DNA of 58,855 nt from Phoronis australis. Taxonomy: Eukaryota > Animalia > Phoronida. Position numbers and translations under genes: made by a program. Below are positions 3,001 to 47,326 of this stretch, piece by piece. The notes beneath the pieces are model-generated. The model made no database searches, had not been told where the DNA came from, and saw only the letters and a program-made list of their open reading frames with translations. Where the stretch lies: assembly GCA_002633005.1 (NCBI GenBank), contig NMRA01001081.1, positions 1 to 58,855 of the forward strand, written 5' to 3'. How positions within the stretch are numbered: position 1 is the first letter of the stretch; every line of letters starts with the position of its first letter.

Positions 3001-3333
3001 CCAGTCGAGGCCAGCTGAGGTGAGCGGAGGCCAGTGGAGGCCAGTGGATACCAGTGGAGGCCAGTGGAGGCCAGTGGAGGCCATGGGACGCCAGTGGAGG
3101 ACAGTGGAGGCCAGTGGAGGCCAGTGGAGGGCAGTGGAGATCAATGGTGGCCAGTGGAGGCCAATGGAGGACAGTGGAGACCTGTGGAAACACGTGGAAG
3201 CCAATGGAGGCCCCTGGAGGCCAGTGGAGGGCCGTGGAAGCCAGTGGAAGCCAGTGGAATACTGTGGAGGCCAGGGGAGGACAGAGGAGGCCAGTGGAGC
3301 ACAGTGGAGGCCAGTGGAAGCCAGTGGAGACCA
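1..3333. repeat. G-rich 10-bp tandem satellite (consensus GGAGGCCAGT) with higher-order blocks
   Basis: Roughly 330 degenerate copies of a 10-mer. Variant blocks such as ggagatcaatggtggcc...ggaaacacgtggaagccaat recur at ~171, ~1202 and ~3137. Single n joins at 873, 1735 and 3334. Confidence 0.97.
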
Positions 3334-6415: not shown

Positions 6416-18463
<12,048 letters not shown>

Positions 18464-23850: not shown

Positions 23851-25573
23851 TTTCTATTACGCAAGCCCATTTATTTGTGGAACGATACATCACCTGGAAA
23901 ATTTCCCTTCCATTTTGTCACGGGTCATTCCAAGCCCTGTTTTTTGCCTTTTAGGTTATTTAGTTTTCCACTTTGACTTAAGCAAACACCGCCTGATCCA
24001 AAAGAGCGCCCCGAGAGTGTTTTTTTCTGGAAAACCGCTGGTCGCTGTGAGCATTCTTTTGAAACAACTTATTCTTTGAATGATAGGCATAGATGCATAT
24101 CATACGCCAAATATCAACATATTACATTAACGTTGAAAGCATATAGCGTCATTCCATCAACACGCAAAAATAGCTATTGAAATGAACAAGGACATTTGTT
24201 GAACCAACAATGCAAAGTTCATCGCCGCACACGCAAAAGTTACAATCCAGTCTAAAAGTTCAAATTACTTGGCAAAAATGCAGCAGAGTTGCATTTAAAC
24301 TCCGACTTCATGGGAATGTTTTTTTCTGAAAAATCTGTAAAAGCTTTCTAAAATCCGGGTTCATGCAAATTTCTTCTTTTGGATGATCGCTCTTTCGGGG
24401 ACTGCTCTTTAAAGGGTGCCATGTTTTGGATATTCCCAGTAGACGAGCCTACAATTTTAAATTAAAAAGCGAACTAAGCGCTTGATCTGGATGTACATGT
24501 ACGCATACAGAAGGCCTCGGCGTATTAGATCGAGCCTTTATCATTCAGTTGACAAAAATCTTCACGGCATTCAGCCAGCCAAATAACTGCGTATTTTTTA
24601 AAGGACGGGGTTCGCCAAGACATTAATTTCAAGTATGGGTTCATCTAACTGGTTCACGTATAAACGCATGCGCGTAATTCCGAATACAGACGTAAGTTTG
24701 ATGTTGGCGCATGTGCCTAATTACGCACGTGAGCAGAAATGGTGACATTTAAAAAATCTTACAATATCTTTCGCAGAAGCTATTGTTCCGAAGTTATAAG
24801 TTAACATTTTTGGTTCTTGAGTGACTATCGCCTTTTTCTGCAAGGCTAGTTCATGGGGAGACTCAAAGGAGCCCCCATTTGGCGAAGTGGGCAAAAAGGT
24901 CCTCCTCAGAGAGACAAAAAGTCCTACAAAAGGAGAAAAAAGTCCACTTCAAGGCAGGAATTCGGCGAATGTACAAATCGTAGCTTTGAACGTAACCCGT
25001 TTTTTTAGTAAAACGTCCGCATTCACAAAAATTCAAGCCCCCCTATATTTTAAGATGGGTGTAGGCCTACGCATGTAGTTAGCAATCCGGCATTCTAAGT
25101 GCCGAATATTAGCCATCGTTAACCAGTCCCCAATGAAGAAATTCACGAAGGTTTGAAAACGGTAAATAAATCTGTGACCTAAAGAGCTGTCACTTTTCGG
25201 AATGTTTGCCCTCCAGACTTTCGGCCCTTCGTACAATCGACCATCCGACTATCGGCCCTTCGAACTATCGACCCTACGGACTAGTGCCCTCTGATGGAAT
25301 ATTATTGTGGACTCAGCTATTCGGACTACATTTGTGTGGGCTAAATGATTCATTTCAATCTCGAAGAAGTTTGAGCTGGGAACATCTAACATGTTTTGCG
25401 TATTCAATAACAAGTCCTCTACAGTATACGCCATTTCCACTGTGAAGTTCAAAATTTGCGTGACCGACCGGTGGCGCTACCCCCAGCGAATGGCTTCCGA
25501 ACTGCTAGCTTTCAACAATTACTTGAGATAACACTCCTCTGTTAAGCATTTGGGAACGCAATTGAGAGCTTTA

Positions 25574-26912
25574 AGGCGAAAGCAACCTTTTTTCATGTCA
25601 CTTTTAGCAAAAATAAGGTTCGTTGATTATCCCAGACACATTTTTCACTTAATTACAGCTTTTCGTAATTTGATTAATTCCTCGTCCTCTACTCCGGAAG
25701 TGACGTTTTGGGAGGCAAGAGCTTCGCGTCAATTTCTTTTCATTATAATCTGACTGAGAGCTGTCGAGTCAGTCATTGTTCTACCTCGGTTGTGATATGT
25801 TCGGTCGTCGTTTGCGTTTGTTTACAAGTCAGTCAACATGCCAAGCTGTTGCTAGCTACGTGCCGGGATGTACCCATTATCGTCTCACGCGCTTTTTGTA
25901 CCTTGCGTCGCTTTCCGAAGGATGACACACTTCGCCGTACTTGGCTAGCTCGTTCATGTGAAGAACGCAGCGCTACCCGTCCACGCAACGTACAAAGCAG
26001 TGGAGAGTTACCGATTGTGTGGCAAGCATTTTCTGCCGTCAGATTATGACAGATATGTACGCTGAATTGATGAAGGTCCCTGCGAAACAACGCCTGAAGA
26101 AGGGTACCATACCGTCGCGGTTGATTCCCGGCAGTGTCCCGTTGCCAACCCCGAGAAGCGTGTTTTTGAAGCGAGAAGCCTCGTGAGCTGTGGCCACTAT
26201 ATACAGTGACTGGAGGCACTTCATCTACTGTCACCCATGCCTCCGAACGTACCCCATTGCGTGCAATTCCAGGAACTAGCAGTCTTTTATTATTCGCCCT
26301 GTGCTGTTGTCTCTAGCCCAGAGCCTGTAAGCAGCCCTGCAGCGATGTTGAGTAGTGTGAGTGAATACAGGCCCAGTTCGACACCCAGTGAAGAGGACAG
26401 TTCGTCATCCAGTGAACAGATATGTGAGCCTAAGTTTGATAAGTTTACTGCGGACTTGTATTGGAGCTAATTGGAAAGTGCCAGGTGTGTGGCGAGGGAG
26501 TCACACGGCGGGATGTAAGCAGTTTGGGTGCTCAGATCACCCTTCAGTGGGAGTGTGTCGCGGGACACTCGGGCAAGTGGGACAGTTCTTCCTCTGTACG
26601 CGAGACGATAATGAGTACACCCCAGTACGCAGCAACAGCGTGGCATGTAGACTAACTCGTAAGCAAAAGCAAACGACGACTGAACTTATCACAACCGAGG
26701 TAGAACAATGACTGACTAGACTGCTCTCACAGTCAGACTATATGAAAAGAAAATTGGCGCGAAATTCTTGCCTCCCAAAACGTCACTTCCGGAGTTGACG
26801 ACGAGTAATTAATTAAATTACGAAAAGCAGTAAATAAGTGCAAAATATGTCTGGGATAATCAACGAACCTTATTTTTGCTAAAAATGACATGAAAAAAGG
26901 TTGCCTTCTCCT
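25574..26912 (+). mobile_element. Kolobok-type non-autonomous DNA transposon, copy 1, with ~290-bp inverted arms and a decayed THAP/transposase N-terminus
   Basis: Ends AGGCGAAAGCAACC...GGTTGCCTTCTCCT with degenerate TTAA flanks. Internal frameshifted THAP: MPSCC..PGCT / FPKDDTLRRTWL / RLCGKHF / RLKKGTIPS. Followed by CQVCG...WECVAGHSGKWDSS. Confidence 0.8.
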
Positions 26913-28181
26913 TTACTTACGAGCAAGGTGTGTATATTTCCAAAAATCATCAAACCGTACGACATTTGGTAGACAGCCGAGTGGATTTGCAGTTCTCCGC
27001 CTTCCAGACATTCGTGCTTATTTTTAAGTATGAATTTATGAAAAGCTTATAATGTTTTCAGTCTTTGACTTATGAACTGATTGAAATACCTCGGTGACTG
27101 GCTCTAGGAACCATACCGTTACTGTTTCCTAGGTGATCTCCAGAAACGAGTAACTGCGGTTCCTAGGTGAGCTTACAAAAAAATCGAATGACCTCGGCCA
27201 GTCGGCGGCTTCCACAAAACATTTTTCTTAATGAGTATATTCGCTTTGAAAGCACATCATCTGATAATTATTACTGCTAACTATGCGTTTTTGATGAAGT
27301 ACTATTACCAGAGTAGTGTTGGACATCATGTCTGAACTCTAAAATTACGTAACGGGCAAAGCGAGACCGCGTTTTGAGACCCGGCAGTTTGTTCTGTCCC
27401 GCACCTTGTTCTTGTTTTCAATGAAATTATTTGAGTTGACCTCTCGACCGAAGGTAAGTAACGGATGATTTGCTTTGATTCAGCGTGACCCGCACTGACG
27501 GTAACAGTCATAAAACTGTTTGGGTCATTGAAGTGGAGTGTGTCGGCTTTCCCGGGGGAGACTCCCTGATAAGTGTAACTCGTCCTTTCCGTCCGTCTAT
27601 TGCAATACACGCACTTTGTAAAATACGCCCAAAGTGATCAAACTGAACGAACAAGATTTGGACATACCAGTTCTCAACTGCATGAAAAGCATATTTGTAA
27701 ATAGTAGGCCTAAACTAACACTTGAATGGTAAAATGTATTCTGTGGGTGTGGTCGTGGCTGTGCGCTGGGCTCACGACTTCTCCTGGGCACGCATCATTT
27801 CAACGACGAGTCTTGATGTACGTGATGTGTTTTTGCAAGTTCTGAAGTGAAGCTAGCACTCCCGAGTTATACATGACTGAAGGCAGCAACTGTGGCAGTG
27901 CCGAGCACATCTCAAGTTACATGTATATTTTGATAAGTTTTACACTGACCTCAAACATATTATTATGTCTTAATTTGAGGTTGCACGTGCAGTCTGGCTA
28001 TAATTATAAAACGTTTATCTGCAATCATAGGAACAGACTGTACTCGGTAGAGTTCGCAAAGACGTTCAGAATAAGAACCCCCTGACAACTGTGAGGTTAC
28101 GCAGAGTTCGGTGTTTTTAGTTTGACCTGTCTGCAACCATTTTTTAGTCGCTTGCTGATTTACCTGGCCGTCCGTCTGATC

Positions 28182-28274
28182 ATGGAGTTGTTGACGTTAG
28201 TACTTGTCGCGGGAACAGGTGCAGGGCTTGCGTTTGGACTCGTGATTTACTTTCTATCGAATTCTTCAAAAAAG
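28182..28274 (+). CDS. SQLE: SQLE-like exon 1: hydrophobic N-terminal anchor (MELLTLVLVAGTGAGLAFGLVIYFLSNSSKK), GC donor
   Basis: atcATGg context, ~22 hydrophobic residues, AAG|gcaagt donor, and an in-phase join to the acceptor at 29525. Confidence 0.65.
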
Positions 28275-31200
28275 GCAAGTAACATTTAACACCATAACTA
28301 AAAAGAATCACGAATAAAGATTGAAGTGGACAAACCATCATGGTTTCATTTAGTTTGTAGGTGCAGTGATTTGTTAATTCAGTACGCTTTGTTTTTGTAT
28401 CAACCTTAAGAAGTCTTTTTATTGTCGTTGTTATGGTTACTAGCTGGCTACCTATAGGGGTAACTAGAAAGTAAAAACACTTGTAAATGATAATGCAATA
28501 TGACGGCAGCCAACCATGACTTTCAATACCATTATTGAAAAATACCCGAAACCACAGTTTGTTTGTCATTGTATTGTCAGTATAAGCGACGTACAAAGAT
28601 AATTTACACCGAACTACAAAATCTTTGGTACAGAGACAAACTCGGTATCAATCGCGTAATTTCGCCATGGGCAGAATGTTGGATCATCAGCCAAAAAGCA
28701 AGTTATATGACTTTTAAACTTGAGAATGATTGACCGTAACGACTGAAGTTCGCACACTGTGGTCAGATAACATTCCCATCCATCCTAAAATAACCGAGGT
28801 GTTCCATATGAATCCATTGCTACTCCGTCGCTGCCACTCGCTGGTGCAAGAATGGAATCATCTGTTATTATAACTGATAAGCATTTCATACATGATACGC
28901 GGTCACCATGAGAACTGGAATCTATGTATAATATACTTTTAGGTGCAGCCATTCACTTGTGGCCATCTCAGTGCACATGTTTGGGCTCCAATGCAACGCC
29001 ACGAAAGGCTTAAACTCACTAGTGTGATTATTGTGGGGGGTATTTGTTTTGGTTGTTTTACCACGTCACGAGCCATTGTGTTTTATGACAGTAAAAAGTG
29101 TCCGTGCATGTTTAAACTTGCTTATTTCAATGAAATTAGACTTCACATTTGAATAATTCTGCAATTCGAACGTGCAATAGAATATTTTACCCTATTTGAT
29201 GCTACGAAAATACCCGAGGTCAGTGCGGATGTTCCTGATGCCATGTAGGATAAAGTATAAATTCTTGATAATTGTCTGATCAAACTCAAATAACACCTCG
29301 AGACTACAGTGAAGCCGACTTGGATGCTCGGCTGAACAATGACAACTTTCGCGGTATGTTCCGGCCATGCACGGCGAAAACTGCATAGGCATGTTGCTAC
29401 GTCATATACTAAAATTAAAATCCATTCTTTTATTCAAATTCAAACCGAAGGAGCGCCAGTCTTATCAGTATCCAAGTATTCACGTACGTTTGGTGTAAGA
29501 ATTGTGGGTTGTGGCTTACTTTTAGATAAAGGCGCCCCAGCCCACAAGAAATGCCAGCATGGATGATGCGGACATTGTGATCGTGGGCGCTGGCATTTTG
29601 GGTACGACGCTTGCTATAAGCATGGCACGCAATGGCCGTCAAGTTGCGGTGATTGAGAGAAACATGGGCGAGGTTCAAACCATAGCTGGAGAAGTCTTGA
29701 TGCCAGGAGGGAGAAAGGCACTTCATAAACTTGGCCTCGCAGGTATAGGGGTCGAGCTCAATAATTGTATCGCCGGCGCCGGTCGAGAAAAATCTAACCT
29801 ACGAAAATCACGTGCTCCTGTTGAAAATACATGGCGATATCTAGCGACATCTTGCTTTTCCAGCGACATCTTAGTGATATTAACTCGGCCCTGGTCGTTC
29901 ATTTTTGACCTTACTCCACGTTCTCGAAAAAATTTTCACATAGTAACGAAGAGAAGATCTTGTGATGACTCGAATCTTTACCGATACTGCGCGCTGTGAG
30001 CGTATTTTGTGTCGACACCTAACGCTTCGTGTAGCTACATTTAGCAAAACTATGTTGTCTGTTGATTATTGTCCCTCATCATCAATAAAAACTAAACACT
30101 AGGTTTTACTTGAAAATCAATTTCAGGTGTGATTGCCGAGATTGAGGGAGCCGTGGCACATACAAATCTTTATAGCGTGTTGGTTGACGAAAACATAGAG
30201 TGGAAATTTACATTCCCTCAGCCTGTAATTGGATTTCATCACGAGAAATTCCTTACTGCATTGCGTGAAAGAGCAAAGCAAGAGAAAAAGTAAGTTGTAT
30301 TGAAACGACACCTATAGGCGTTTTTCGTGAATCTTGTCTGAGTGTACTCAACGACAACTAGACAAGCACCCCTTAATATCGTTTCGTGAATTTCGTGAGA
30401 CCAAAAGATGTCATTGACAACGGTTGAAAGTTTTTAACCGCAGGGTAGGTATACCTTTTGTTCTAAATGACGTCACGAAAACATGGGACTGTCACCAATG
30501 TAAACTGGGCAGAGTTCAGAAACCATGAGACCTCGCTAAAAAGCAAAACTTCGCGAGATTACGTGAGATATTGCCGTGTATTTTAAACGAGAACACGTGA
30601 TTTTGTCTAGATTTTAGCGAGGTCCTAGCGTAGTTCCTGGCGTAACTGAATTCTACCCTGTATTTGAAACAAATTTCGTTGGTATTTTCTTTTCTTTTCT
30701 TTTAGGCTACACTGTCTAACATTGCTACTCAAATAGTGTACCCTAGCTGTTACTCATGATCGTGAATACATGATTATGAAGTGCATTGATACGAGATAAA
30801 ATGTAACAATTTCGTAAAATGTAAGACCATTGTTACATTTTACGTCATTGTTACATTTTACGTTGTTAAACCTCTCCTAAAATGTAACAAGTTGTTACAT
30901 TTTACGTCGAATGCACACGCGAGAAATGTACCATTGTTATTGACCAAAATTATGAACAAGTAGTATCTGACACGGCCGGGGGCTACTCAAGTATTTTTGG
31001 AGCAGCGGTGCCGCCCGAAAAATTTGGATACCTACCTGTTTAGAGTCGGCTCGGACAGATAGTGACCCACTTAGAGACTAATTTGGTGTAAAAATTCACA
31101 TTTCAGCAGTTCTGTTTCAGAAATTCAGAAAAGGCACTCTTTTAGATAGTATTTTGTCGAAGATTATACCATTTTGGAGAGTATTTTTGCTGTGAAAAAA

Positions 31201-34200
31201 CAGCCACGGGGCGGCGCTTTTCCATAGGAATGTCCTCCTGGCTTACACAGCATGAATCTGGCTACCCATTATCATTTTTATTACTATTGTTATTACATTG
31301 CTATTACTACCATAACTGCCATTACTACCATAACTGCTATTACTACTGTTACTACTTTCACTAACAATTATTCGTTATCGGTATCGTTATCATCATTATT
31401 ATTTTTAATTTATTTAAAGAGGACATACACAATACATGTTTTATAAAAGAGCTAATACATCATGGTCATCAAAGATTTTAAAAGCATCTCTTTTATGGTT
31501 CAATGTTTTCACCGGGCTTCCCATAATGGACAGAGAGTGTTATTTCAAAAGGATTTTAAAGGGGTTCCCATGTTCAGCCTTAACGATATTGAGAGAAACC
31601 TCTTGACAGCGGTGGGTGCAGAGTAAGTCTGCTTTTTGGAAACGAGGAGATTGCATGGGCGGCGCAGCACTGAAATAAGTTGGGGCTAATTTCCGATGCT
31701 CTAAGCCTACGCCATTGGGATGGTCCAGTTACCGGGGGGTACTCCAATAGAAGAGGTACAGGGTACGTTCGGCCAAGGGGTGCCATTTTCGAAAAAAAAA
31801 ACTTTAAAAAGGTGCGTTTTTTGAATTTTTAAAACAAAAATGTGCAAAAATGGGTAGGTATCTTAATTTTCAGAGCGGCACTTCAGTCCAAAGTGTTCGA
31901 TTCCCCCAACCCCCGGTCCAGTTTTTGGTGTATTCATTATTTACTGCAATAAATTAAGACAGCAACAAAAAGGAGATGGACGATGTTTAACATGTGTTCA
32001 TATCTGACATGACTGAGTAGACGACAGAGCAAAAAATTGTCAACGTTGTTTTGTCTGTTGTCGCTTACGCTTGCATTTGAACGTTTTAGAAACTGAATGG
32101 CCAGGTTACGCGGCTCCGTAACAAACAAGGAGACAAACGTTATGTTGGTGTGTCTTAATTGACAGAGCTAAAATTTTCCAAAGTTGTTTCGCCTATTGTT
32201 GTTTACGCCTACAAACGTGTTACAAATGTCTAGTAGGTTTATTTTATCCAACCGTTCTCTGTGACTGTTCAGAATGCTCAAGCTCATGAACCTTTCCTGT
32301 CCCATAGTTGATCGTAACCACGTTTTTACTCTCCTTGCTGTAGAAAACGTTCTCTCAACCGACGTACTGGTAGCAGGGTTCACTAAAACAAGTTCGAAAA
32401 AGCGTTACTACATTGTTGATCAACGACTTTACGAAGTCTTCAAGACCCTTCACGATCTCAAGAATATCCCCGAAACACTTACAATTTTGTTCACCTGCAA
32501 ATTCTTTAAGGGTATTCAATTGCGTTACCAAATTGTCACCAACGAAGTCTTGTGAATACGTTTCCATCACCTGCGTTAGCTCAGGCTCAAGGTTTTTCTC
32601 TCGTGACGTAGCCTTAAAGGCGAATGCCACCCGATTTCATAAGTCTTTTTTGCCGTCTTAATCGGTCTATTTCCACATCGCCTCGCATACGGTCGACCTT
32701 ACTTTGCCAAGAGGTGTCACGTTAACATGTGAGGAAGGTGAGAAACGACGCTAGCGACGTCAGTGGTTCATATGCAGAATGAATGCCGCTATGTTGCGGT
32801 GTATCGTTCCCGCTTGTCCGAACTAAGCAGCCGCGAGGAAAGCGAGTGTATCGTTTTTTTACTTCCTCGAGAGTCCAAAATGCTTAGGAAGTGGCTCATG
32901 GTAGTGAAGTGAAATGTACGCTGTAAATAGCAAGTGTGAGGCCGTGAAATATCTCCGTGTCTGTGGCCTGCAGACGACGTCGACAGTGCCTCACGAATGC
33001 CGGCTTACCAAATAACTCCATACGTTCCGTTGTCTGAGCTTGTTCACGGCGCCTCTCTAGTATTTCTTCATTACTGTATTCCTGTTCGTGATAATTGATA
33101 GCCTGTAAAACTTAACGATCCACCTGCGAAGTCGGTATTGATGAGCCGCTCTAGCTCGTCCTAAGTCGGGATTGCGAGTTGCCATGTTGGCGTTTATCAT
33201 ACTGAGCGTTCCGTTTCAAAATGAATTATTCTCACCCTAACCAATACTTACATAAAACTGAAACAAAATCTGTCTCATTAGATGCAATTTGTAATGCCTT
33301 TGGAGTGTTCGTGAGTACACGAAATGATTTGAGAAGCTAGCAATGAATAAATCACTGCGTTACCGGCTTTAGGTGCAATAAAACTAATTGACGGGACACC
33401 GCGAGGCCGTGTGAGCTCGTGCTAATTTAGTGTTTGCTGACAGAAACTGTTGTGAAACAACTCGATTTCCACCCTACGACCAGGTGTTAGGGGAATTTTT
33501 ATTTACATTTACTCAAATAATGATTGTCAATGTACAACTTCTGCCCTGACGGTGCTGTGGCCAAAGCGGAACTGAATTCGCAGCCCCCGACGAGTAAGTA
33601 GATTTGCAGTTTCGTGGCTAATTCACCAACATAATCACGTGCACGTTACTTTGGCTCACCAGTATAGTATTTTCTTGACTGGAAGTTTAGTTTCCACTGA
33701 ACTTTCGCTGGTTTGTTCGTGATGTCTGATCAGTTTCCGAGCCACTCGACTGGCCGGAATAACGAGTCAATCCGGCCGACCGCGACGGGCCGGATCGGGC
33801 TCCGAGCCACTGGCCAGGATAATAAGCGTTTTGTGTTTAGAACTCAGAAAATCACAAGTCTAAACAACACAGATCTAGGTTCTCCTGTCTGTATCTCACG
33901 GAAAATACTTCGAAATTATCTCCGAACACACCCCAAACTCCTGCTACGGACCTTATTGGCCTCCCGAACTTTGTCATAGGCAACGGTGTGTCCAAATACC
34001 AATAAATCCGTAAGAGCGAAATAAAACTACACGTTTTTGTAAGAACTCGGTGTATTTTTAAGGGTTTTACATCGAAGTTTGATGATTTATTGGTGCTAAA
34101 CGATGATTCCAAGCGATAAGCTGACACCAGTAACCCGTGTTGTGAACTGCTGAACAGAATGCTTGTGAAACCGATGACGTAATAGCGGAGTTGCAACGCC

Positions 34201-37200
34201 GCCATATTGGAAATGGGTCAGAATGTTGCATTGTGGTTAAGCCGGTAAACAAGTACGTCGGCAAGCGTGGGGGCGAACCGGCCACAGGGAGGTTATACGT
34301 GTTGTGTGCCTGGCATGCTATAATACCAGTTAGCGAAATAAAAAATTTAGTTACTACCTGTTTCCCAAGGATCAAGAACTGCGTTAAACATGGGTCAGAG
34401 ACATCGGTAGAGCTGGTAGCAAAGGCCGACTTCGTGAATTCTTTCCGACTTCGTAGCATAAAGTGTGCAGCGCTCATTTTGAGGGCGGCAAGAAAACGTA
34501 TCTTAGAAACTGCCCAACAATATCTCCCTTCAAAGAAACAGTAACAAATACTCCACGGCGGTTGGTAGTGAAAAAAAANNNNNNNNNNNNNNNNNNNNNN
34601 NNNNNNNNNNNNNNNNNNNNNNNNNNNNNNNNNNNNNNNNNNNNNNNNNNNNNNNNNNNNNNNNNNNNNNNNNNNNNNNNNNNNNNNNNNNNNNNNNNNN
34701 NNNNNNNNNNNNNNNNNNNNNNNNNNNNTTACAAGGAAAAAATGGCGGCGTTCAGGACAAGTTCCTGAACTGATGAGCCGGAAATGTGGGTACGGAAATA
34801 ACCGATGACAACCGGTAATCATACGCTCAGAGAGAAGGGTCAAATACTGTTAAAAAATCGCTTTTGGCAAGAAAGGCGAAAAGAATATAAAGAAAGGGTG
34901 TCGAAAATAAGAATTTATGTAGTAAGTATTTTCGGATACTAGAACCACATGGGCAGTTTGCAACAAGCACATTAAGGATCAGCGATTCGAGGACCACGTA
35001 CATTTTGAACGCTTCTTGGTCAAATCTTTCTTAGATTTTAGCGATTAAATGATTTAGTATCTCGTAATATATTGGTCTATAATGATCGACTAGGCTTGCT
35101 GAATATTCGAGTTCTGCCGACCCTGTTTCAATACGCGCCGGTGCTCTGCGTTTACGAGGTAACGTGGGATCTCCAATTTGGTTGAAAGACTTGCTCTTGG
35201 AAAGCGTTGTTTTCCAAAATGAGTCGAAAGACTCATCCTTTCTGGTGGACTTCAACGTTTCAACAGTCAGTTTTGCCAGCCGCTGTCCTTGGGTGGCAGA
35301 TAGAGACTTATTTTGAAGAGTTTTGGCTAGATTGTCAATAACGTAGAAAATATATCTGAAACTAAATAAGGCGATCCAGATCCTCCCAAGGATACTATTG
35401 TTTCATGAAATGAAGAATATAAATCGGTTAATAAAACAACAAGAATGGATCAACTGAAATTTGAAATTTTCGGATGTAATAACTTCCTTTGTCAACAAAA
35501 ACAGAAATAAAGTAAAATCAAACAGGCAAAATGACAATTGACACATAAGATATGGTGTCAGGAATATGATACATTTTTGCGTAAAAAAACTGTGATTCTC
35601 GCACGGATTTCTGAGTCTAAATTCTGCAATAAGCACCAGTTCCAGGTGTCAAAGCCAGATAATTGTCCAATACACGCTTGTAGCATTCGGCTTTAAGTGT
35701 CCCATCTCGTCTGACAGAGTTTTAAGAGTCCAGTTGGTGAGAAATTGTCCTCGTCATCGTCGATGTTGTTTTTAATTTCCCAAATATTTGTTCACATTTC
35801 GGAGAATACTGTTCCCATTGTGGTGGACAAAAGTTTGTTTTCTTTACTGAGTCATATCTTTAAAGCCTAAACAGTGAACGAGTGGCAATGACAATAAGTA
35901 AGTACTTCTTTTGGCTGTTCTTGTTGTATAGTCTTGGCGACATCTGTTTTCTTCCCTAACATCGCACTCGCACCGTCGTAACGTTGTCCTCGACATTTGG
36001 TCAGTGATAGTTTTTAAACTTAAAAGTTCTTACAATCTAAATTATTTTTATTGCATGCGATGTTGTTCCAGCAGCAATATCTGGTAGGTATGTAAAACCT
36101 ACAAAATCTTCATGATATTCAGGTTGTTTGTCCACCCAACGGATGCACATGTAGAGCTGTTCTTTGTTACAAATGTCGGTATATTCGTCGCACATTAGCG
36201 AGAAAATTCTATTCCCAATGTCTGCCATCAAATCCCGTATAACCCGTGATGCCATCAAGTAATAATATCATTTTGAACGTCGTGGCAGAGATACTTATCA
36301 CCCTTTCTGCTGTCAATCCATTGCTGCAAATTAGGATCATCTTTCCCGCGTAGTCGTAAACGTTGCATAAAATTCGAATTCTTCCTCGGTTTTCCCTTTT
36401 ACTGCAATACCTTGTCTTGACAAAAATTGCAATGTTTCAACAATTTTAATAAGGCATTCACAAAGTCCGATAAAATGAGACAAAAGTCCACTAAACACAC
36501 TAAACAAGCGCAAGTGCGCAATTCACAGTGGTGCGCCAGTTTTTTCTTTTTTTTAATTCACCGGCTATTTTGTTACCAAAAAGTCCACAACGTTAGGAAT
36601 TCGAGTCCCCCACATTGAAGGCTGGGTGCGCGCATGTAATACTAGAATATCCAATCTCTGTCTTTATTTATATGTGCTTCGAACTAACGAACATGGGCCA
36701 AATAGCAATTTTAATTGATATTTTATCTTAATGATAACAGAGAAAGAAAATGCATGTTTTTGTAGGTGAAAGGTTGACAGTCAGCTTTATTCGGACTATT
36801 GCTCCTTTAAACTATAGACCTAGACCCAGTTTGAGCAAACAGTGCCAAAATGTTTTCTATTTCCACAGCTAGGCCTTCCATTTTTACGTATACACGTCAC
36901 GGTTTGATCTATTGTTATCACCACTGTTTCCGAGGGTTTGAGCTGCTTAAAACATGTTACTATGTCGCCACTTTTCTAAACTGTTGTCTCGCCCTTCTCA
37001 AAGGCAATCTTTTGCTGTTTGTTGTAACCATCCAGGTTATCCAAAATAGGGCTGCCCGGAATATCGAAAACCTTCATAAAGAGACTGGTATAATGAAGAT
37101 TTACACAAGACATCAATTCCTATCTGCTTGTTGTATGTACAAATGTTTTAAAAGTCTTGTCCCATCTTACTTATGTGCTAAGTTTAAGATGACTACTAAT

Positions 37201-40200
37201 CGCTAGGTCCTCATCATCATCTGATTTCAATCTTCCTAAACGCAGAAGCGAAACTGGGAAAAATCATTTTCCTACAGCGGACCCTTTTTATGTAACTCTC
37301 TCCCTGCAGATGCCAAATCTACATCATCCTTTCGAACCTTTAAAAGAATTATAAGAAATAGATTTAACTTCATGTAGTATCTAAGAATTGCATGTTTATT
37401 CATTTGTTATTTATATAATGTCTTACTTTTATTAATTATTTATTTTCTGTTTTAATTTCTTATATTTATATTTATTTTTTAGTTAATTATCTTGTCTTAA
37501 TTTCTTTATCTTCTATTTATCATATTTCATTTTTTATTTTGCTTCATCAGTCTTTCCGTGTTAATTTCTTATTCTTTGCTTATTACTTAAATTTGTCTTT
37601 CATTTTGTAATTCTGTTTTTTTCTTACTATCTATTTGTTTTTTACTGAGGGCCCCCATGGAAAGCAGTGTGAACTGATGGGGCTACCCTCATTGTAAATA
37701 TTACATTAATAATAATAATAATAATAGTTGCACTGGCAAAATTCGTCAACCTGCCCGCAAGTAAATGCGTGTTTTTTGCCTTCCACCACAATGCATTTAG
37801 GAAATTGTCGTTCGTAACTAAAGTTTCAGACAGAACCAGTCGGCATCAGAAACTTTGATCTTGCTCCTTTTGTGTGAAACAATAGCGAGGACTCCAAGGC
37901 AATAAAACACCGGCTGAAATAAATCAAACTATCGTGGACTAAAACGGGTGATTTTTCAATCAAACTGGCTTCCGTGAAAAAAACATGTTATTGTCGTTTG
38001 TTCCGAAGAAATACGATAAAAATTAACCAAAAAACGACGTCATTGTGCTTACCAAGAGAAGTGTGTTTACTGTAATGCCTGATATACAATTGGTTTATGA
38101 CCTGTGAGTGACGACATAAGATTGCAGAAACGCTTTAAGAATAAAAACTTGTTACAATTACATAAAATGTAACAACTTATTACATTTACGTCATTGTTAC
38201 ACTTTACGTTGCTAAGTCTCTCCTAAAATGTAATAAGTTGTTACATTTTACGGCGTATCACTGCATGTGTTATACACGTTGGGCCGAGTGCACACCTAAT
38301 ATCTTCCTTTTATTGTGACTGTTCAATCGATTCTGTTCGACAGTTTGGACTAAAAGAATAATATTTCTACAAACTCTTGTAGTTTTAAATTAGTATAAAC
38401 ATTCGGAGAATGTTCTTAATTTTCATGACACTTTCATAATGTTCAGGAAAACATTTCAATGGCGGGAAACATGTAATGCACGCATGTCTGCCAGTTGGCC
38501 CTATATCCGAACTTGAGAGCGTGAGCCGAGTAAAACGCTGGGTAATTTTACAACTTACAAGGATGGTGTATACCGGAATTGCCGCTCCGAAGAGTGGGGG
38601 TTTCACTGTTGACAAAAGGATATCATCTGGCGATTGAATTCCTTACAGGAGGTATCAGGAAAAAGGGTCCAGTTTTGCTTCGGAATCCTCACATTTTTCA
38701 TATTCTATTTAGGTTTGGTGGGTGAATTATAATTTTTATTTGATTGATTAAGCCATTTGTTGTGGTAAAACCTAGCCAAAAGTGAAGCGTCAAAGGAACA
38801 AACATCTACGACGTGTTGACTTTTTCGCAAACCCTTTAAAAATGACGACAACTCTCCAGATGAAATTTTATAATTATGCTAACTCTCTAGAAGAGTAGTT
38901 AGCTTTGTTTTTCAGCGGCGCATTCCATCAAAGCGAATGAGAGTAATATTATTTATCCCGCGCACGTTGAATCTGTCGAGGGAAATACGGCCATGAAATA
39001 AAGTTTTCCGTATTCACCTCCCGCATTACTTTAACAACGACCTCTGACATGGAAAGTTCAAAAGGTAGGTCAATGTCGACTCGACGTCTTCAGCCGGTTC
39101 GATCATCAAACTTTCCGAATATAGTTTTAAGTATCACAGTATAACTAATACTCGACATGCAACCACAGGCGTCCTCATCTTCTGTTATCTATCAGACATT
39201 TGCTAAAATCAAGCCCACTGACTTAACCAGTAAAATACGTCGTTTCATGTGGGCTTTAACTTTGGCAACAGCGTTAGACTGTGACTACTGGATTGCACTG
39301 GATTCGAAAACGCCCTACGGCTGATCTGATGATTCGGATGCTAGTGTGTATGATTTGTATTCGTATTTGTGATTTTGTGGCTCGTGCGCATGATTTTTTT
39401 GTATGCACGATCATCATGGGTTCGTAGGTGGTTCGTGCGTGAGATGCGATGCTCGTGCGTGTTTTTCTATGTCCCTGTAAATAATCGGAAAATGTTTGCA
39501 GCGTCAAGTTCATTGGAGGCACAGTGACTGAATTGCTCGATAAAGATGATGGTCCTGTGAATGGTGTCCAGTATCGGAGCGCTGAAACCAATGAAGTGAA
39601 GGTAACGTGCGAGGGAGTGGACAGTAAAAGAGGTCTGTTGACTCAGATGAGCTAGTTTAGTAGCATGTAACATGTGGAAAGGATAGTTTAACTTATTTGG
39701 CCGTTGATGGTTCACAGCGTTCATTAGTACACTCAGTTTTGAATGAAAAATAATTCTTGTTGGTCAAAACTAATTCGAGTAACCCTTCGTGTTAAGTTGT
39801 GGAGTAGATATTGAAGGACCTGCCGTCACCATACATCCTGAGTGTACGGTGACGTAACACCCAGTAAAGAAATATGTAGGTCATTGCTAAGAATATTCTT
39901 AAGCAATTCTTATCGAGAAAGTCGAAATAAAACAGCTCAGAAGCATACTTAAACGCATCACAGGATTCTTGCACTAAAATTGTTTTAATAAAAGTTCTTT
40001 CGGCGTTGTAAAAGTTCATGTGGTGTGTCACCTTAAGTGTTTTGTTAAAGGGTTTCGCTGCGAGGGGAAAAATTCTGCGGTGCGTGGTAAGGGTTCCATT
40101 AAAACTTCCCTTTTAAAACGTAGACATGACATCTCAGTTTTGTATGGTGAGTGACGATGGCTCCTTACCCGGTGAGGGAATTCGACTACCGCCCTTGACA

Positions 40201-43200
40201 ATTACACGACTACTTTCTAGGAAATTCATGCCGCCCTTACGGTAGTTGCTGACGGTCGATATTCCAAATTTCGCAAGGCACTGACGCGCGAGAGTCCCGT
40301 GAGCGATCACGTTGTTGTTGGTATGATCTTCGACGGACCTATAGAAGATGAAGACAGGAAGAACATAAAGTTGTACAGCTTCAAAAATTTGCCATACTAC
40401 ATGTCATTGTACAGCATTTCTGACACAGAATACCGAGGAATGGCTTGGATCCCAGACGGTGCAATAAAAAACGTGCAGGAATTCCTTGTTAACGAAATTG
40501 TTCCCAGAATGCCTGGTAAGTTTTTCGTCGAAAATGCTGATGTTTATAGATTTTTTCTAATGAACTGTAATTTTTCATAGTTCAGATTTTGAAACTCAAT
40601 AACATTCATTTTCTTTCATGGATTGTGGCCAGCCTTTATATTTACGGTACACTGACTTGTTTGAAATCTGAAAAGTGGTGTGCTTTTAAATTATTTTGGA
40701 GGAAGCATTTTATTGTTAGATGCTTGTCGTGTTTGTGGTTTGTGTGTTGTACATTCTTTTAATAAACAAGCGGGCCATTCTCACCACTAAAGTCAGTGTT
40801 TTAGCGATACTGCTGTGCTAGTACTTTCCGATCAAGATGAGATAAATTTAGTGGCACACTCATCAGCAAGACCGACTAATTACTCTCTCAACGAGGTCTC
40901 CGTTGTTTAGTTTAAAGGCGAAGGCAACCTTTTTCCATGTCATTTTGAGCTAAAATAAGGTTGGTTGGTTATCCTAGACATATTTTCCACTTAATTACAG
41001 CTTTTCGTAATTTTATTAATTACTCGTCCGCTACTCCGGAAGTGACGTTTTAGGAGGCAAGCNNNNNNNNNNNNNNNNNNNNNNNNNNNNNNNNNNNNNN
41101 NNNNNNNNNNNNNNNNNNNNNNNNNNNNNNNNNNNNNNNNNNNNNNNNNNNNNNNNNNNNNNNNNNNNNNNNNNNNNNNNNNNNNNNNNNNNNNNNNNNN
41201 NNNNNNNNNNNNNNNNNNNNNNNNNNNNNNNNNNNNNNNNNNNNNNNNNNNNNNNNNNNNNNNNNNNNNNNNNNNNNNNNNNNNNNNNNNNNNNNNNNNN
41301 NNNNNNNNNNNNNNNNNNNNNNNNNNNNNNNNNNNNNNNNNNNNNNNNNNNNNNNNNNNNNNNNNNNNNNNNNNNNNNNNNNNNNNNNNNNNNNNNNNNN
41401 NNNNNNNNNNNNNNNNNNNNNNNNNNNNNNNNNNNNNNNNNNNNNNNNNNNNNNNNNNNNNNNNNNNNNNNNNNNNNNNNNNNNNNNNNNNNNNNNNNNN
41501 NNNNNNNNNNNNNNNNNNNNNNNNNNNNNNNNNNNNNNNNNNNNNNNNNNNNNNNNNNNNNNNNNNNNNNNNNNNNNNNNNNNNNNNNNNNNNNNNNNNN
41601 NNNNNNNNNNNNNNNNNNNNNNNNNNNNNNNNNNNNNNNNNNNNNNNNNNNNNNNNNNNNNNNNNNNNNNNNNNNNNNNNNNNNNNNNNNNNNNNNNNNN
41701 NNNNNNNNNNNNNNNNNNNNNNNNNNNNNNNNNNNNNNNNNNNNNNNNNNNNNNNNNNNNNNNNNNNNNNNNNNNNNNNNNNNNNNNNNNNNNNNNNNNN
41801 NNNNNNNNNNNNNNNNNNNNNNNNNNNNNNNNNNNNNNNNNNNNNNNNNNNNNNNNNCTCCACTGCTTTGTACGTTGCGTGGACGGGTAACGCTGCGTTC
41901 TTCACACGAACGAGCCAAGTACGGCGAAGTGTGTCATCATCGGAAAGCGATGAAAAGGCACTCCCAAAGCGCGCGTGAGCCGATAATTAGTACATTCCGG
42001 TACGCAGCAACAGTGTGGCATGTTGACTGACTAGTAAATGAAAGCAAACGACGACGGAACTTAACATAACCGAGGTACAACAATGACTGACTCGGCAGCT
42101 CTCACAGTCAGACTACATGAAAAGAAATTGGCGCGAAATGCTTGCCTCCTAAAACGTCACTTCTGCAGTAGCTGACGAGTAATTAATAAAATTACGAAAA
42201 GCTGTAATTAAGTGGAAAATATGTCTAGGATAACCAACCAACCTTATTTTAGCTCAAAATGACATGGAAAAAGGTTGTCTTCGCCTTTAAGGTTCAAGTA
42301 CATTAAGGGGATATACATAGGTACAGTGACTGGTGACGAGGCTCTCTCCACAAATTGTTCACCAACTAAAAATAATATTTGAGAATAAAACCGTGAATTA
42401 TATCTGGGAAAATTTCGTGATTTAGTTTCAGAATACGACGTCATTCCTTCGATTCGTCTTTGCTCCTTCATCATGTAGTCGGACCTATAATTCAAACATT
42501 TTCTTCATTCATTTTATTATTCTTCCATTTTCAAAAATCTAGCACACCCTGTGAAAATGACCAGTGATCAAATCCCTGGACTTTTAATACATTTTATATC
42601 GACGATAGTCTTATATACTTTATATGGATCTGCATAGTTTTTATCTCCAGCGACTGGTGTTAAAGCGACATACACCCGCCTTCAATCAAACAAAAAACAT
42701 TTAGTTCATCATATCAGACTACGTATAGAGGTCGCATTGTAACAACGTGTCATTTGATGGCCTCTTCATCTGTCAGTTTTTCCAAGAGTAAAACACCACT
42801 TCTCTTTTGAGTAAGGGACATATTGAAACCAGAAACTTACAGAGGAAAGTGGTCTCGATTAAAATTTTGTCTCTTTGACAGAACGGGGCTTATAACTACT
42901 TTAAGTGTTAATTTTGTGTGGTCACGTTAATGAGCACACCGGAGATAATTAGGCAGAATAGTCCATGTATTCAGGCTTAAGTATGTCTTCAGGACCTTCA
43001 TCGCTCTTTTAATGACATTCCAGAGAGACTACAAGAGCCGCTTCGCCTTGGCATTTTAAAGAATGGCCTTCGAACATGTCGGGCGAACTATCTTCCCTCC
43101 CAACGCGTCGTAGTTCCCGGTCTTTTACTGCTGGGAGACGCGCTGGGTATGCGTCATCCTGTTTCAGCTAGCGGTATGACCATTTGTTTCCAAGACGTCG

Positions 43201-46200
43201 TCCGATGGACTGAGCTTCTGTCCGAGGTACCAGACCTCTACGACTATGAAAAAATGATGTTGGCTTGTGACAGCTTCTTCACACAGAGGAAGCCAAGTGT
43301 GTTGACTATGAGTTGCCTGACCGAGATCATGAACAATGTCTTTAGTTCAACTGACGGTAGGTGTGATTTGTCCATTTATTTGTTTTTGAGAATGTTATGA
43401 TAAGGGAGCCTACACAGTCTACGTCTGCTGATTTGACAAGCTCTCCCATAAAATTTGTTTGAAAACAGTTATTGTTATTTACTATCATAACACCTCCTCA
43501 AGGGAGAACGAGATAAAATACAATGAATAACAGACAATAGACAAATTAAAACTAAATTAAATCACCTGGTTAAGAGTCTCAGAAGACAAACTCAACCGAC
43601 GCCGGATTACGGATATTATTCGAACGAAAGAGGAGTCTCCCACAACACCATCATTACACTCAAATGACATGAGACGCCGTGGGACAGACGATCGACACAA
43701 CAGACCATGCCGATTATTTTAGCTGGGAGGGTCCCTGGAACAACTACTACATTATACAAGTATATTGATTAGTAGGTATATACACAGGCGTGTACACGGA
43801 GCGTCTACACGTCAGACGCGCATAAATAAACCAGCAGTAGAATTATTAATAACCGGCTGAACACTCGAGATGCCAAGGGCACTCACTAATAAGGTATGGC
43901 GATTTCTGCCACCTACCGGCAGAACTGCATTACAACACTGCCGTGAATTTTCCAGTTTACATAAACAAAAAAGATAAAAAATTGGAGGGGAACCAACGTT
44001 TGTATCTTTACATGATTGACCTGTGTTTACGATGGAGCTCACAACCGCTATTTTAATTTACTTTATTTTAGGTTTAATCGCAATTTTCTGGGTTTTCAGG
44101 AGTCTGACACAGTTCTATATAATTTCATTTAGCTTTCACTTCGCAGTTTTTCGTTTCACGAAGCGACGTAGTAAAGTTAATACTAATTTGAATTCTTAAA
44201 CAAGTTGTAAATACTGTCATATCTTTCATAATGTGTGCATCATTCATAAAACATCTAAAATGACACTGACCGAGTTCACCAGAACATCATATAAACGTAA
44301 AGATCATTAAAAATCCACTTTCTTGACGTTCTCGGAACAGCAGTGGAATGGCACTAAACTTTGCTTTTCATAAAATCAAGAAAACTGGTAACAAAAATGT
44401 AAATAACTTACAAAACAAGACTGCTTACGAAATGTTCCTATTTGCGCTACATCTTTCGATAAATTCGTTTGGTGTTTTATATGAGTGAAAAACAAAGGGA
44501 AGGGAACGTTTAAGGAAGGTGCACTGTAGTAATTTAGACCCTTTCTCTTAGACTGCGTTGTTAACACAAGTCTCCAGGAGGGGCAGTGGTATCACTGACA
44601 GTCCACCACGCATGTGCAAGATATGGCACCTACTCAGTTATACAACTAGTCTGACATAGGGTCATGATATGAAAAAAATATTTAAACTTAAGTTAATAAT
44701 AAAATGGTGCAAGATGAATTAATATGTACAATTTTAAGAAAGAAATTTGAAACAAACTATTAAAAATAAACAAAGAAAAGTTTTAGATTATTATGTAAAA
44801 TTATTAAATATTACCGGGGTACTTGGACTTGGATAAATTGAAATAATTAATTTGACGGATGTCAATATCGAGATTGTTCCGTAGCAACGCTCCAACGTGG
44901 GGAAAAAGAATGTTTGCCAAAATTAATTCATGAGGACATTTGAAATGATTAGAACTGGTTCTATTGTCTGAGAAACATGTGTTTGTGACTATTTATTTGC
45001 AGGTTTTGGGAAAATGAGTATGCTGAACTATTTCAAACTTGGAGGCAAGTGTTCAGAAGAGCCAGGTCTGATGTTCTCTGCGTTAGTATATTTGCAATAG
45101 ATTCTCAGTAGTAGTAGAAGAAAGCTTTCCATGTAAAAGCCGACGACTCGTATTACAATAAAAAACAAGGAAGGTGTGAAAATGATAACCCCTCAATACG
45201 TAGTTTTCGCTTCCTGGGAAGAATCTGCGTATGCTTTTTTATGCACCCACGTATCTATATGTGAGTGCGCATTGCCGTCATCTCTGCCTGGGGATCCGGC
45301 GGCCAGGAGTCCGTCGTCCATATCATAAGATTTGGCAGATAAGTTCCTATGAAGCTGACGAAGAATGACGACGAATTTAGGACCGATCCGACAACCACTG
45401 TGCCCTAGCTTTCTTTTGTGTATTTGGATGGATTTTCATGAAATTTAGCAAATAAAAACTATTTAGGAGACGACGACACTTTTCCATTTTTGGACGATTC
45501 CACCTGGTGGCCATTTTTAAAAATTTTTAAGTCGAGTTTTTTTGGCGTCCGTCTTTCTATCTGCCAAAGCGCTTAAAAATCGTTAGAGAAATAGCCAGAT
45601 GTGTTCCTAATGAGGAGACCCCATATGACGTTGATTTTTCGGTCGAGTTTCACTACTCTGGCGTCCCCTAGTGGGGATTTTTTTTCTTCCGCAGCTATAT
45701 CTCCTTAACCCTTAACCAAGAATTTTGTGATGCCAGGCAGTCTTGTTCCTATGGAGATATTAACAAAAGATGACGACTTTCAAATCCAGCCGACAATTGG
45801 TGTGCCCCCCTTGTGTCAGTTTTTGCGTATTCCTGTGTATCGCCGGAGTTCTTTGATGGGTTTTTATGAAACTTGGCAAATTGATTTCTATTACGGATAT
45901 GATAATGTCTTCCCATTTTCGGACAGATTTGACGTATTGAGGGCTACCTAATTTGGGGGGTTTATAAAAATTTCGAGTCCGGTCTTGGTGTCCGCCTCTC
46001 TATGCACCAAAACGCTCGAGTGGCACTTTTTGCGTATGAGGGTCTGTCTCCTTAACCCATTGCAAGATCTTTGTTAAATTTAGCGAATGTGTTCCTATGA
46101 AACTGAAAAGGGATTACCACAAGTTTCAGACTAATCTGATTATCGCTGTGCCCCCTAATGCCAGTTTTAGTTTTTCTCGTTTGCCTCTGTATCTTCAGAA

Positions 46201-47326
46201 TTCATTGATTGATTTTTGTGAAATTTTGCAAATAGGTTTTTATTACGTGATAAAAAATAAACATGACCAAGGTTGTGGCTTTACATAGAATTTCTATGCT
46301 AGGACTACACTGTCATGGTGGCTCTTTGTTGCTAGAGGCTCTTTTGGAAATCCTCAGTATCAATTTACTGCACAAAACTGATGTGGCTAAGATTAGAGCG
46401 CACGCGATAGTTGTCTGCCTAATACGAAGGATGTTCCAGTAAAAACACATCTTATTTTAATTCTTTCATCTAATTAACCATATAGAAAAAGACACATTGT
46501 TGCCCTACAATACTATGATGTCAGAATCTCACTGATCTGTAAATAATCTTTAGAATGAAAAACGTAGATCAAATTATTACGAGGAACAAACGGACGTATG
46601 AATTAGCTATCGGCCGGGCCACTGGGCAGTATCAAGACAAATAAAAGGGAGGGTGTTAACGAGTTGTGTAAAGAGTCGCTGATCATTTGCCAACTAGTTA
46701 CGAACACAAAGATGAACACTCTTACATTGACACTGAGCATATTATAGAGAACTGAACTGCAATGACACCTCGCGGCGTATATGTAAACTATACTAGCTAT
46801 AAATTGTGGGGGAGCGAACGTTTGTCTTAACCCATGCCAAATGACGTCGTATGGATGTCGCAAGGTATTGTTTGATTTGCGAGATCCGTGCGACCGGCGT
46901 AAGCGCGTCGCATGGTTATCTCCTATGGGACAATTCCATTGTTTTACTTTGTTGCGTCTTTGTTGAACACAACAATACAGGTCGCATGGATATAGTACCG
47001 TGGTCGCACATCAGCCCGTTACCGATTAATGCTTGCTATTATCTTTATTATAAGAAAACAAAAACAAAGTGAACAGTGGATAGGCCTATCTATCGATATC
47101 TATGCGACGAGCAGAAGTCACTTATTTTTCATTGTGTAATTCCAGATACATAACATCCCCTGTTACTCTCATCAAACACCTAGCAGCCAGCACGTTGTAC
47201 AGCAGCTACAAAACGCTCATCAAGAAACCTCTGTGGAACCCCACTGGCGTCTTCGATGCAGTTAACGTTCTGATAAACGGCACGAAAGGAATTCTCAAAT
47301 ACGTTTTGCAAGAGATAAAAGTTTAA
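28182..47326 (+). CDS. SQLE: Squalene monooxygenase/epoxidase-like FAD monooxygenase, divergent, whole gene: join(28182-28274,29526-29742,30127-30289,39502-39601,40221-40515,43024-43356,45003-45081,47146-47326), 486 aa
   Basis: The 1461-nt spliced frame is open with matching phases (0,1,2,0,1,1,2). Motifs VIVGAGILG, VIER, GE.L.PGG, FHH.KF..ALR, EIHAALTVVADG.YSKFRK, LLLGDA..MRHP, PDLYD and YFKLGG.C are collinear with animal SQLE. Confidence 0.88.
29526..29742 (+). CDS. SQLE: SQLE-like exon 2 (Rossmann GxGxxG)
   Basis: DADIVIVGAGILGTTLAISMARNGRQVAVIER...GEVLMPGGRKALHKLGLA; ttttag acceptor, gtatag donor. Confidence 0.9.
30127..30289 (+). CDS. SQLE: SQLE-like exon 3
   Basis: GVIAEIEGAV...IGFHHEKFLTALRERAKQEK; tttcag acceptor, gtaagt donor. 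Confidence 0.88.
30976..31241. mobile_element. Short CCGGGGG...CCTCCTGG MITE
   Basis: G-run/C-run termini; flanks ctgacacgg / cttacacag (7/9). Confidence 0.45.
31268..31410. repeat. (TAT/TAC)n low-complexity microsatellite
   Basis: Repeated attact/ataactgct/ttatca triplet runs. Confidence 0.7.
31732..31916. mobile_element. Short CCGGGGGG...CCCCCGG MITE
   Basis: Inverted termini with direct flanks tccagtta / tccagttt (8-9 bp TSD). Confidence 0.65.
32618..34971 (+). mobile_element. Insertion at a duplicated TTAA inside the hAT ORF (Kolobok-like left end), containing two decayed THAP domains
   Basis: TTAA at 32614-32617 and 34972-34975. Removing the insert restores hAT ...ESLIL-K-ATSRE... Left end is AGGCGAATGCC. 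THAP relics at ~32791-32975 and 34288-34530. No clean right TIR; N gap inside. Confidence 0.7.
34288..34530 (+). pseudogene. THAP11/Ronin-like THAP zinc finger relic
   Basis: With one frameshift and three stops it reads GGYTCCVPG/CYNTS*RNKKFSYYLFPKDQELR*TWVRDIGRAGSKGRLREFFPTS*HKVCSAHFEGGKKTYLRNCPTISP. Confidence 0.75.
37030..37727 (+). mobile_element. CR1/L2-group LINE 3' end with (AAT)n tail
   Basis: QVIQNRAAR...MYKC...PSYL and LPK..SETGK.SFSYSGP...NSLP fragments, an AT-rich 3' UTR and an aataataat tail. Confidence 0.7.
39502..39601 (+). CDS. SQLE: SQLE-like exon 4
   Basis: NVKFIGGTVTELLDKDDGPVNGVQYRSAETNEVK; ttgcag acceptor, gtaacg donor. Confidence 0.88.
40221..40515 (+). CDS. SQLE: SQLE-like exon 5 (DG motif)
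   Basis: EIHAALTVVADGRYSKFRKAL...LYSISDTEYR...EIVPRMP; ttctag acceptor, gtaagt donor. Confidence 0.9.
40916..42286 (-). mobile_element. Kolobok-type non-autonomous element, copy 2 (interior mostly N gap)
   Basis: TTAA|AGGCGAAGGCAACC...GGTTGTCTTCGCCT|TTAA with perfect TSD. Minus-strand THAP start MPHCCCVPECTNY...FHRFP..DDTLRRTWL at 42021. Same family as 25574-26912, opposite orientation. Confidence 0.85.
43024..43356 (+). CDS. SQLE: SQLE-like exon 6 (GD motif)
   Basis: ERLQEPL...PGLLLLGDALGMRHPVSASGMTICFQDV...VPDLYD...VFSSTD; ttccag acceptor, gtaggt donor. Confidence 0.9.
45003..45081 (+). CDS. SQLE: SQLE-like exon 7
   Basis: GFGKMSMLNYFKLGGKCSEEPGLMFS; ttgcag acceptor, gttagt donor. Confidence 0.85.
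45220..46330. repeat. Unclassified interspersed repeat with internal sub-repeats (related to 11190-12330)
   Basis: Shares gttcctatg, gattttcatgaaattt, gtgccccct and ctgtatct motifs with 11190-12330. Boundaries approximate. Confidence 0.5.
47146..47326 (+). CDS. SQLE: SQLE-like exon 8 (C-terminal membrane-associated helices, stop)
   Basis: YITSPVTLIKHLAASTLYSSYKTL...LQEIKV*; ttccag acceptor in phase 2. Collinear with the SQLE 'P..LI.HF.A...Y..Y' tail. Confidence 0.8.

Follow-up and report, generated by a model that had tools for sequence, protein, structure and literature searches.

Can a squalene epoxidase (SQLE) that keeps its flavin site and carries a rebuilt substrate pocket still act on squalene? 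The step that SQLE catalyses in animals is usually regarded as conserved housekeeping within sterol synthesis. The question is raised by an SQLE-like gene at positions 28182-47326 (+) of contig NMRA01001081.1 from the phoronid Phoronis australis (assembly GCA_002633005.1), whose 58,855 nucleotides were analysed at full length and are called the window below. A first-pass annotation had described the gene as intact, with a conserved cofactor site and a rewired active site. Our analysis indicates that the protein is probably a neofunctionalised flavin epoxidase acting on an isoprenoid other than squalene, likely a bulkier one.

Cofactor site and substrate pocket

The pocket list comprised the residues given in the available text of Padyana et al. 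(PMC6327030), to which we added Gln168, and the 19 flavin adenine dinucleotide (FAD)-motif sites were picked by us from the motifs. Numbering follows the 574-aa mammalian SQLE (P0190), whose register matches that of PMC6327030 at 27 of the 29 sites checked; the 'L234' of that paper is an Arg in P0190, and L324, which is named elsewhere in the paper, was used. As a reference set, we took 60 non-redundant sequences out of 227 near-full-length matches, nine divergent lungfish and Amphiura proteins being set aside, and called a residue rare when it occurs in <10% of the 60 references.

All three FAD fingerprints (GxGxxG, DG and GD) are present, as first annotated, and 19 of the 19 FAD-motif sites are kept. 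Rare residues occupy 16 of the 26 pocket sites (14 without sites 322 and 324, which are poorly aligned). The references carry nine rare pocket residues at most, and 45 of the 60 carry 0 or 1; S. pombe Erg1 has one, while the SQLEs of a tardigrade, of the acorn worm Ptychodera and of Capsaspora have none (26/26 kept). Changes that the first-pass annotation had allowed might be common among invertebrate SQLEs were thus not seen in the canonical ones retrieved, from the tardigrade and the acorn worm. Gln168 is replaced by Met90, Q being found in 59 references and M in one, and L416V, T417S, G418A, L333S and G227E are each found in 0/60, indicating that the substitutions lie beyond ordinary family variation. 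Three of the changes (N411G, G227E and Q168M) fall in columns that are 97-98% conserved. The 212-223 loop has 5 residues here and at least 8 in all 60 references. The LTGG loop reads VSAS, and the hydrophobic tunnel lining of canonical squalene epoxidase is not conserved. Of the 383 retrieved proteins that have this motif, 4 show a form starting with ASG, part of the set having itself been collected by means of such motifs.

The pocket motifs quoted in the first-pass annotation are all present at the expected place, their human counterparts having been checked against 6C6N for exons 2, 5 and 6. Its change of Tyr195 to Asn is not secure, and the loss of Tyr195 does not stand as it was stated. 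MAFFT and a profile hidden Markov model (HMM) pair Tyr195 with Tyr119 through a two-residue insertion (HMM posterior ~0.8), while counting from the PGG motif favours Asn117, 58 of the 60 references having a spacing of 26 residues. The alternative register would put Tyr119 at Ile197, another pocket-lining position. Since Gln168 is a Met, the Tyr195-Gln168 bond would be lost in either register. Tyr335 corresponds to Tyr255 with a posterior of at least 0.95.

The asymmetry extends to whole domains. With boundaries that are our approximation, the FAD segments are 46, 53 and 53% identical to those of the canonical Ptychodera SQLE, the substrate segments 21 and 24%, and the helical domain 19%; in the last two, the tardigrade and Capsaspora enzymes keep 55-56% and 51-58%. 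Judged from these alignments, cofactor binding is kept and substrate contacts are changed, as the first-pass annotation had put it. Gln168 was also found missing in the plant SQEs P0281, P0334 and P0287 and in the fungal P0063; altogether, 10 of the 260 proteins with the motif lack it, three of them from Amphiura.

Family membership and predicted fold

The Pfam SE model (PF08491) matches exon 5 with 42.6 bits and exon 6 with 85.6 bits (cut-off 20.1), the whole protein matches the 60-sequence SQLE profile with an E value of 1e-107, and PDB searches with exons 2, 5 and 6 gave human SQLE 6C6N as the top match for each. By these profile matches, the protein is a member of the squalene epoxidase sequence family. 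In the AlphaFold model of exon 5 alone, with a predicted local distance difference test (pLDDT) score of 81.8, the strands of the substrate sheet keep their order, and human SQLE accounts for the three best structural matches, with E values of 0.003-0.007, weaker than the 0.001 line. The best full-length identity among the retrieved proteins is 39%, with short stretches at 61-63% over 43-44 residues. Exon 6 gave no significant match to longer proteins among 219 candidates, which is weak evidence, and an Atlas search returned generic SE clusters only. The 20 metagenome loci held no close relative: 15 look fungal in our reading of sequence and GC, and five are Amphiura-like fragments.

Compared with human SQLE (PDB 6C6N, 6C6P and 6C6R; available text of PMC6327030), the protein has the same domain order, the FAD fingerprints and Tyr335, and its P415, L469, F477, F495, P505, L519 and H522 are also those of the human enzyme. 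It differs from vertebrate SQLEs in its low identity (~36-39%), and from human SQLE by the 16 changed pocket sites, including Q168M and LTGG to VSAS. Human SQLE has a ~100-residue N-terminal regulatory region whereas the window protein has a single short anchor; the canonical acorn-worm SQLE is likewise short at this end.

Gene structure, expression and selection

The gene consists of eight exons whose joined frame runs uninterrupted through 486 aa to the stop codon, in agreement with the frame first annotated. Introns 2-7 are all GT-AG, and intron 1 (28274/29526) is GC-AG, which RNA joints support. Each of three stranded RNA-seq runs bearing the species label covers the seven joints, with 19-85 sense-strand reads per joint, and a fourth RNA run yielded a 2209-nt contig that matches six joints exactly and differs by two letters at the seventh. 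Both intronic N gaps are directly spanned by jumping RNA reads, so that no constitutive exon is hidden there and the gene model is complete.

From 18-19% of each of the three runs, we recovered 105, 201 and 270 exon 6 reads, that is ~23-68 reads per kb per million records. These reads show 11 variant sites, seven synonymous (out of 77 sites) and four nonsynonymous (out of 253), one of the latter at the L416 position. The ratio of nonsynonymous to synonymous polymorphism (pN/pS) is thus ~0.17 in this exon alone, and exon 6 is under purifying selection. The first-pass annotation had envisaged, as the contrary case, an untranscribed gene with a nonsynonymous to synonymous substitution ratio near 1, which does not describe this locus. 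Together with expression in all three raw RNA runs, the exon 6 ratio argues for function. A pseudogene was ruled out by splicing, expression and the exon 6 ratio, and a retrocopy or horizontal transfer is unlikely given the seven introns, one of which related animal fragments have at the same position. When exon 6 reads were collected at 80% likeness, none fell under 90%, so a close paralog was not seen, while a distant one would escape. No further SQLE-like stretch was found in the window.

All exons lie on the forward strand. Exon 1 (28182..28274) contains the start codon and an N-terminal hydrophobic membrane anchor (hydropathy 1.4-2.2 in windows starting at residues 1-9), and ends with the GC donor placed by the RNA joint. 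Exon 2 (29526..29742) carries the GxGxxG motif (29586-29603) and a flavin-proximal loop (29676-29711) with R161T, V163A, F166V and Q168M in human numbering. The strand with Asn117 and Tyr119 (codon 30171-30173), between which the Tyr195 register is uncertain, belongs to exon 3 (30127..30289), as do the shortened 212-223 loop and FHHEKF with G227E. Exon 4 (39502..39601) encodes FAD-domain strands. The ADG motif (40248-40274), the substrate-binding sheet, L333S and the kept Tyr255 (40410-40412) are found in exon 5 (40221..40515). Exon 6 (43024..43356) contains the GD fingerprint and RHP loop (43134-43184), with N411G, L416V, T417S, G418A and G419S, followed by a helix in which L469 and F477 are kept and L473 is changed to M. 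The helical domain continues in exon 7 (45003..45081; F495 and P505 kept, C491M, V506G, L508M and L509F), and the coding part of exon 8 (47146..47326) provides the C-terminal helices and the stop, with L519 and H522 kept, F523L and V526S. The 3' untranslated region of exon 8 extends beyond 47700.

Divergent relatives in other animals

Two groups of proteins labelled 'squalene monooxygenase-like' resemble the window protein. The first comprises XP_072028583 of the brittle star Amphiura filiformis and its kin (P0302, P0392, P0393 and P0375), plus P0125. These proteins share R161T, P389R, L416V, G419S, A472I and F523L with the window protein, have also lost Gln168 and have a shortened 212-223 loop. 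A model of P0302 has the SQLE fold (template modelling score 0.80-0.82 to human SQLE), and Amphiura-related genomic fragments have an identical phase-1 intron between exons 5 and 6. However, identity to the Amphiura proteins is just 31% over 398 aa, below the identity of the window protein to canonical SQLEs, Tyr195 is lost in Amphiura, and the related fragments show an apparent extra intron within the exon-6 region. There are at least four divergent SQLE-like models in Amphiura filiformis, all on a contig of the same length, and a single further assembly is the source of the five Amphiura-like genomic fragments. Other diverged exon fragments of SQLE-like type are P0043, P0121, P0007/P0395 and P0004; the contigs of P0043 and P0121 are identical in size (4.3 Mb), which suggests tandem copies.

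The second group is found in the lungfish Protopterus annectens (XP_043922864, XP_043922870 and XP_043922159). These copies keep the FAD motifs and have 11-16 of the 26 pocket sites changed, with R161T, V163A, F166V, L333S, G418A or F523L in varied combinations; unlike the window protein, they retain Gln168 and a full 212-223 loop. They represent a duplication specific to the lungfish, nesting with vertebrate SQLE once the window protein is omitted, and the lungfish also has a canonical SQLE (P0187). In the largely open-access literature covered by our searches, we found no discussion of the remodelled lungfish copies P0006, P0153, P0002 and P0003, and no paper on divergent animal SQLE paralogs.

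Trees with other SQLEs, as the first-pass annotation had proposed, gave a grouping whose position shifts with the sequences included. Without the lungfish copies, the window protein, Amphiura and P0125 form a clade with support 96/97 outside the canonical animal clade, the end branch of the window protein being 4.1 against 0.14-0.9 for canonical animal-type rows; long-branch attraction may contribute to this clade. Placement is not settled when the window protein, with its very long branch, is analysed alone, and adding the lungfish copies pulls the window/Amphiura group among vertebrates (one such tree was made with a quick method). This vertebrate placement, which vanishes on removal of the lungfish copies, was rejected as an attraction to them.

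The window protein shares 7-13 rare residues with the lungfish copies against 2.3-2.8 expected, the maximum being 13 with one copy (2.6 expected), and nine with Amphiura (2.7 expected), the expectations coming from a crude BLOSUM background that probably underestimates chance matches. Because long branches meet and the lungfish copies drag the group among vertebrates, the same pocket residues were likely reached by convergence, and the likeness between the lungfish and window proteins is likely convergent. An old second SQLE subfamily in animals is possible.

Diverged duplicates of squalene epoxidase are also known in plants. Arabidopsis SQE4-7, described as 'SQE-like', are such duplicates, and SQE4-6 do not complement yeast erg1, their biochemical function being unresolved in the portion of the report available (bioRxiv 10.1101/2023.09.21.558849). 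They differ in forming a clade limited to Brassicaceae and Cleomaceae, of independent origin, and the likeness is drawn from their published description; by analogy, the window protein may work like the SQE4-6 duplicates. In a sea cucumber, a 513-aa squalene monooxygenase was cloned, and two quantitative PCR primers given in the available text (PMC13412492) translate to canonical-looking stretches, which hints that a canonical SQLE persists in echinoderms.

Proposed activity and alternatives

If the protein works as human SQLE does in the available text of PMC6327030, it would sit in the membrane of the endoplasmic reticulum and receive electrons from NADPH-cytochrome P450 reductase, a C4a-hydroperoxyflavin would form through the water bridge of the retained Tyr335, and a single oxygen would be passed to a C=C bond lying over the flavin. 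With Q168M, the hydrogen bond between Tyr195 and Gln168 would be lost, and the reduced size of residues 166, 333, 416 and 417 would make the tunnel ~110 cubic angstroms roomier at its flavin end. In the same available text, human SQLE without the Tyr195 hydroxyl lost >90% of its activity, which the authors credit to the Gln168 bond. The gene would then be a putative duplicate, released by a canonical SQLE at another locus of the genome. As to the substrate, a sterol or triterpenoid side-chain alkene can be guessed, on the grounds that it resembles the terminal alkene of squalene; that a sterol side-chain alkene is the actual one is rather unlikely to be the right guess. Similarly speculative is a second animal SQLE branch, so far unrecognised, common to Phoronis and brittle stars and reinvented in lungfish by way of like pocket changes, that would epoxidise sterol or triterpenoid side chains.

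Several points weigh against a new substrate. Changes are only modestly enriched in the pocket compared with other conserved columns (14/22 vs 41/119, p 0.016; at a second threshold 13/21 vs 32/90, p 0.046), and at the strictest threshold the enrichment is gone (7/13 vs 19/48, p 0.53), so that part of the signal would be general fast evolution. Tyr335, probably Tyr195, and the P415, L469, F477, F495, P505, L519 and H522 listed above are as in the human enzyme, and the tunnel is still hydrophobic at its far end. The changed sites 322 and 324 sit in a poorly aligned stretch (posterior ~0.4). Over nine flavin-proximal sites, the summed side-chain volume is ~110 cubic angstroms less, with little change further in, an estimate that uses general residue volumes and not a full model. 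A Gln168 mutant was not found in the available text of PMC6327030. The canonical paralog in the host genome is a presumed one.

The strongest alternative, to which we give a clearly smaller but real chance, is that the protein is the sole SQLE of the organism, fast-evolving and still converting squalene to 2,3-oxidosqualene, its pocket changes being mutually compensating. A single expressed locus, with no exon 6 read under 90% likeness, fits this explanation, as do the modest pocket enrichment and the kept Tyr335, probable Tyr195 and far-tunnel residues; a canonical Amphiura SQLE was also absent among the 120 matches listed in an incomplete search (7994 candidates scored). However, 16 pocket changes are not approached by any of the 60 references, among which S. 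pombe Erg1 shows a single one, and the canonical tardigrade, acorn-worm and Capsaspora enzymes keep all 26 sites. In the lungfish, moreover, like changes appear in extra copies beside a canonical gene.

It is improbable, though less so than outright loss of catalysis, that the protein oxidises a broad range of lipophilic compounds of dietary or foreign origin, its pocket having drifted as substrate constraint relaxed instead of being tuned to one new substrate. The divergence is indeed spread across the substrate and helical domains, and four amino-acid variants segregate in exon 6, including the one at the L416 position. Multi-copy patterns are often seen in detoxifying families, and Amphiura has four clusters or members on a contig of the same length, with five related fragments in one assembly. 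Yet independent lineages have these rare residues in common more often than expected, and no close paralog is expressed here. Finally, it is very unlikely that the protein binds FAD or lipid without catalysis, or is a young duplicate in decay, although N411G, G227E and Q168M hit 97-98% conserved columns, given the open frame, the seven spliced introns, the pN/pS of ~0.17 in exon 6, and the retention of all 19 FAD-motif sites and Tyr335.

Features of the surrounding DNA

Upstream of the SQLE-like gene, a spliced protein-kinase gene (9792-17213, +) matches Pfam Pkinase below the curated cut-off; it holds an 812-codon open stretch (14778-17213), is usable as a synteny marker and presumably resembles tau-tubulin kinase (TTBK-like). 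Two copies of a ~1.35-kb element, likely a non-autonomous DNA transposon, lie upstream of the SQLE-like gene (25567-26915) and in its intron 5 across an N gap (40909-42291), with long terminal inverted repeats of ~320 nt and at least 151 nt. Intron 3 contains repeat-derived DNA (32600-36300), to which many reads come from other copies, with a DUF4371 fragment (36040-36267, -) below cut-off. At 54852-58855, two 2-kb copies with 94% identity follow each other head to tail with a single N between them; they may represent two haplotypes that the assembly placed side by side. Positions 1-3400 form a GC-rich degenerate array of short repeat units with long open frames on both strands, probably a satellite and not a gene.

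Implications

Proteins labelled 'squalene monooxygenase-like' may be miscounted as evidence of de novo sterol synthesis. If the window protein were the sole SQLE of its host, squalene epoxidation would require neither the Tyr195-Gln168 pair nor the LTGG loop, a point relevant to the mechanism of the enzyme. If instead the second animal branch is real, it would fill a gap among the oxygenation steps of steroid chemistry in marine invertebrates, for which 24,25-epoxysterols and the 24,28-epoxide of phytosterol dealkylation are candidate steps. With its neofunctionalised reading, the gene yields specific enzymes to link with unexplained oxygenation steps in invertebrate steroid metabolism, and an intact, selected and expressed copy with a rebuilt pocket, paralleled in brittle stars and lungfish, would point to repeated recruitment of the SQLE scaffold for new lipid chemistry.

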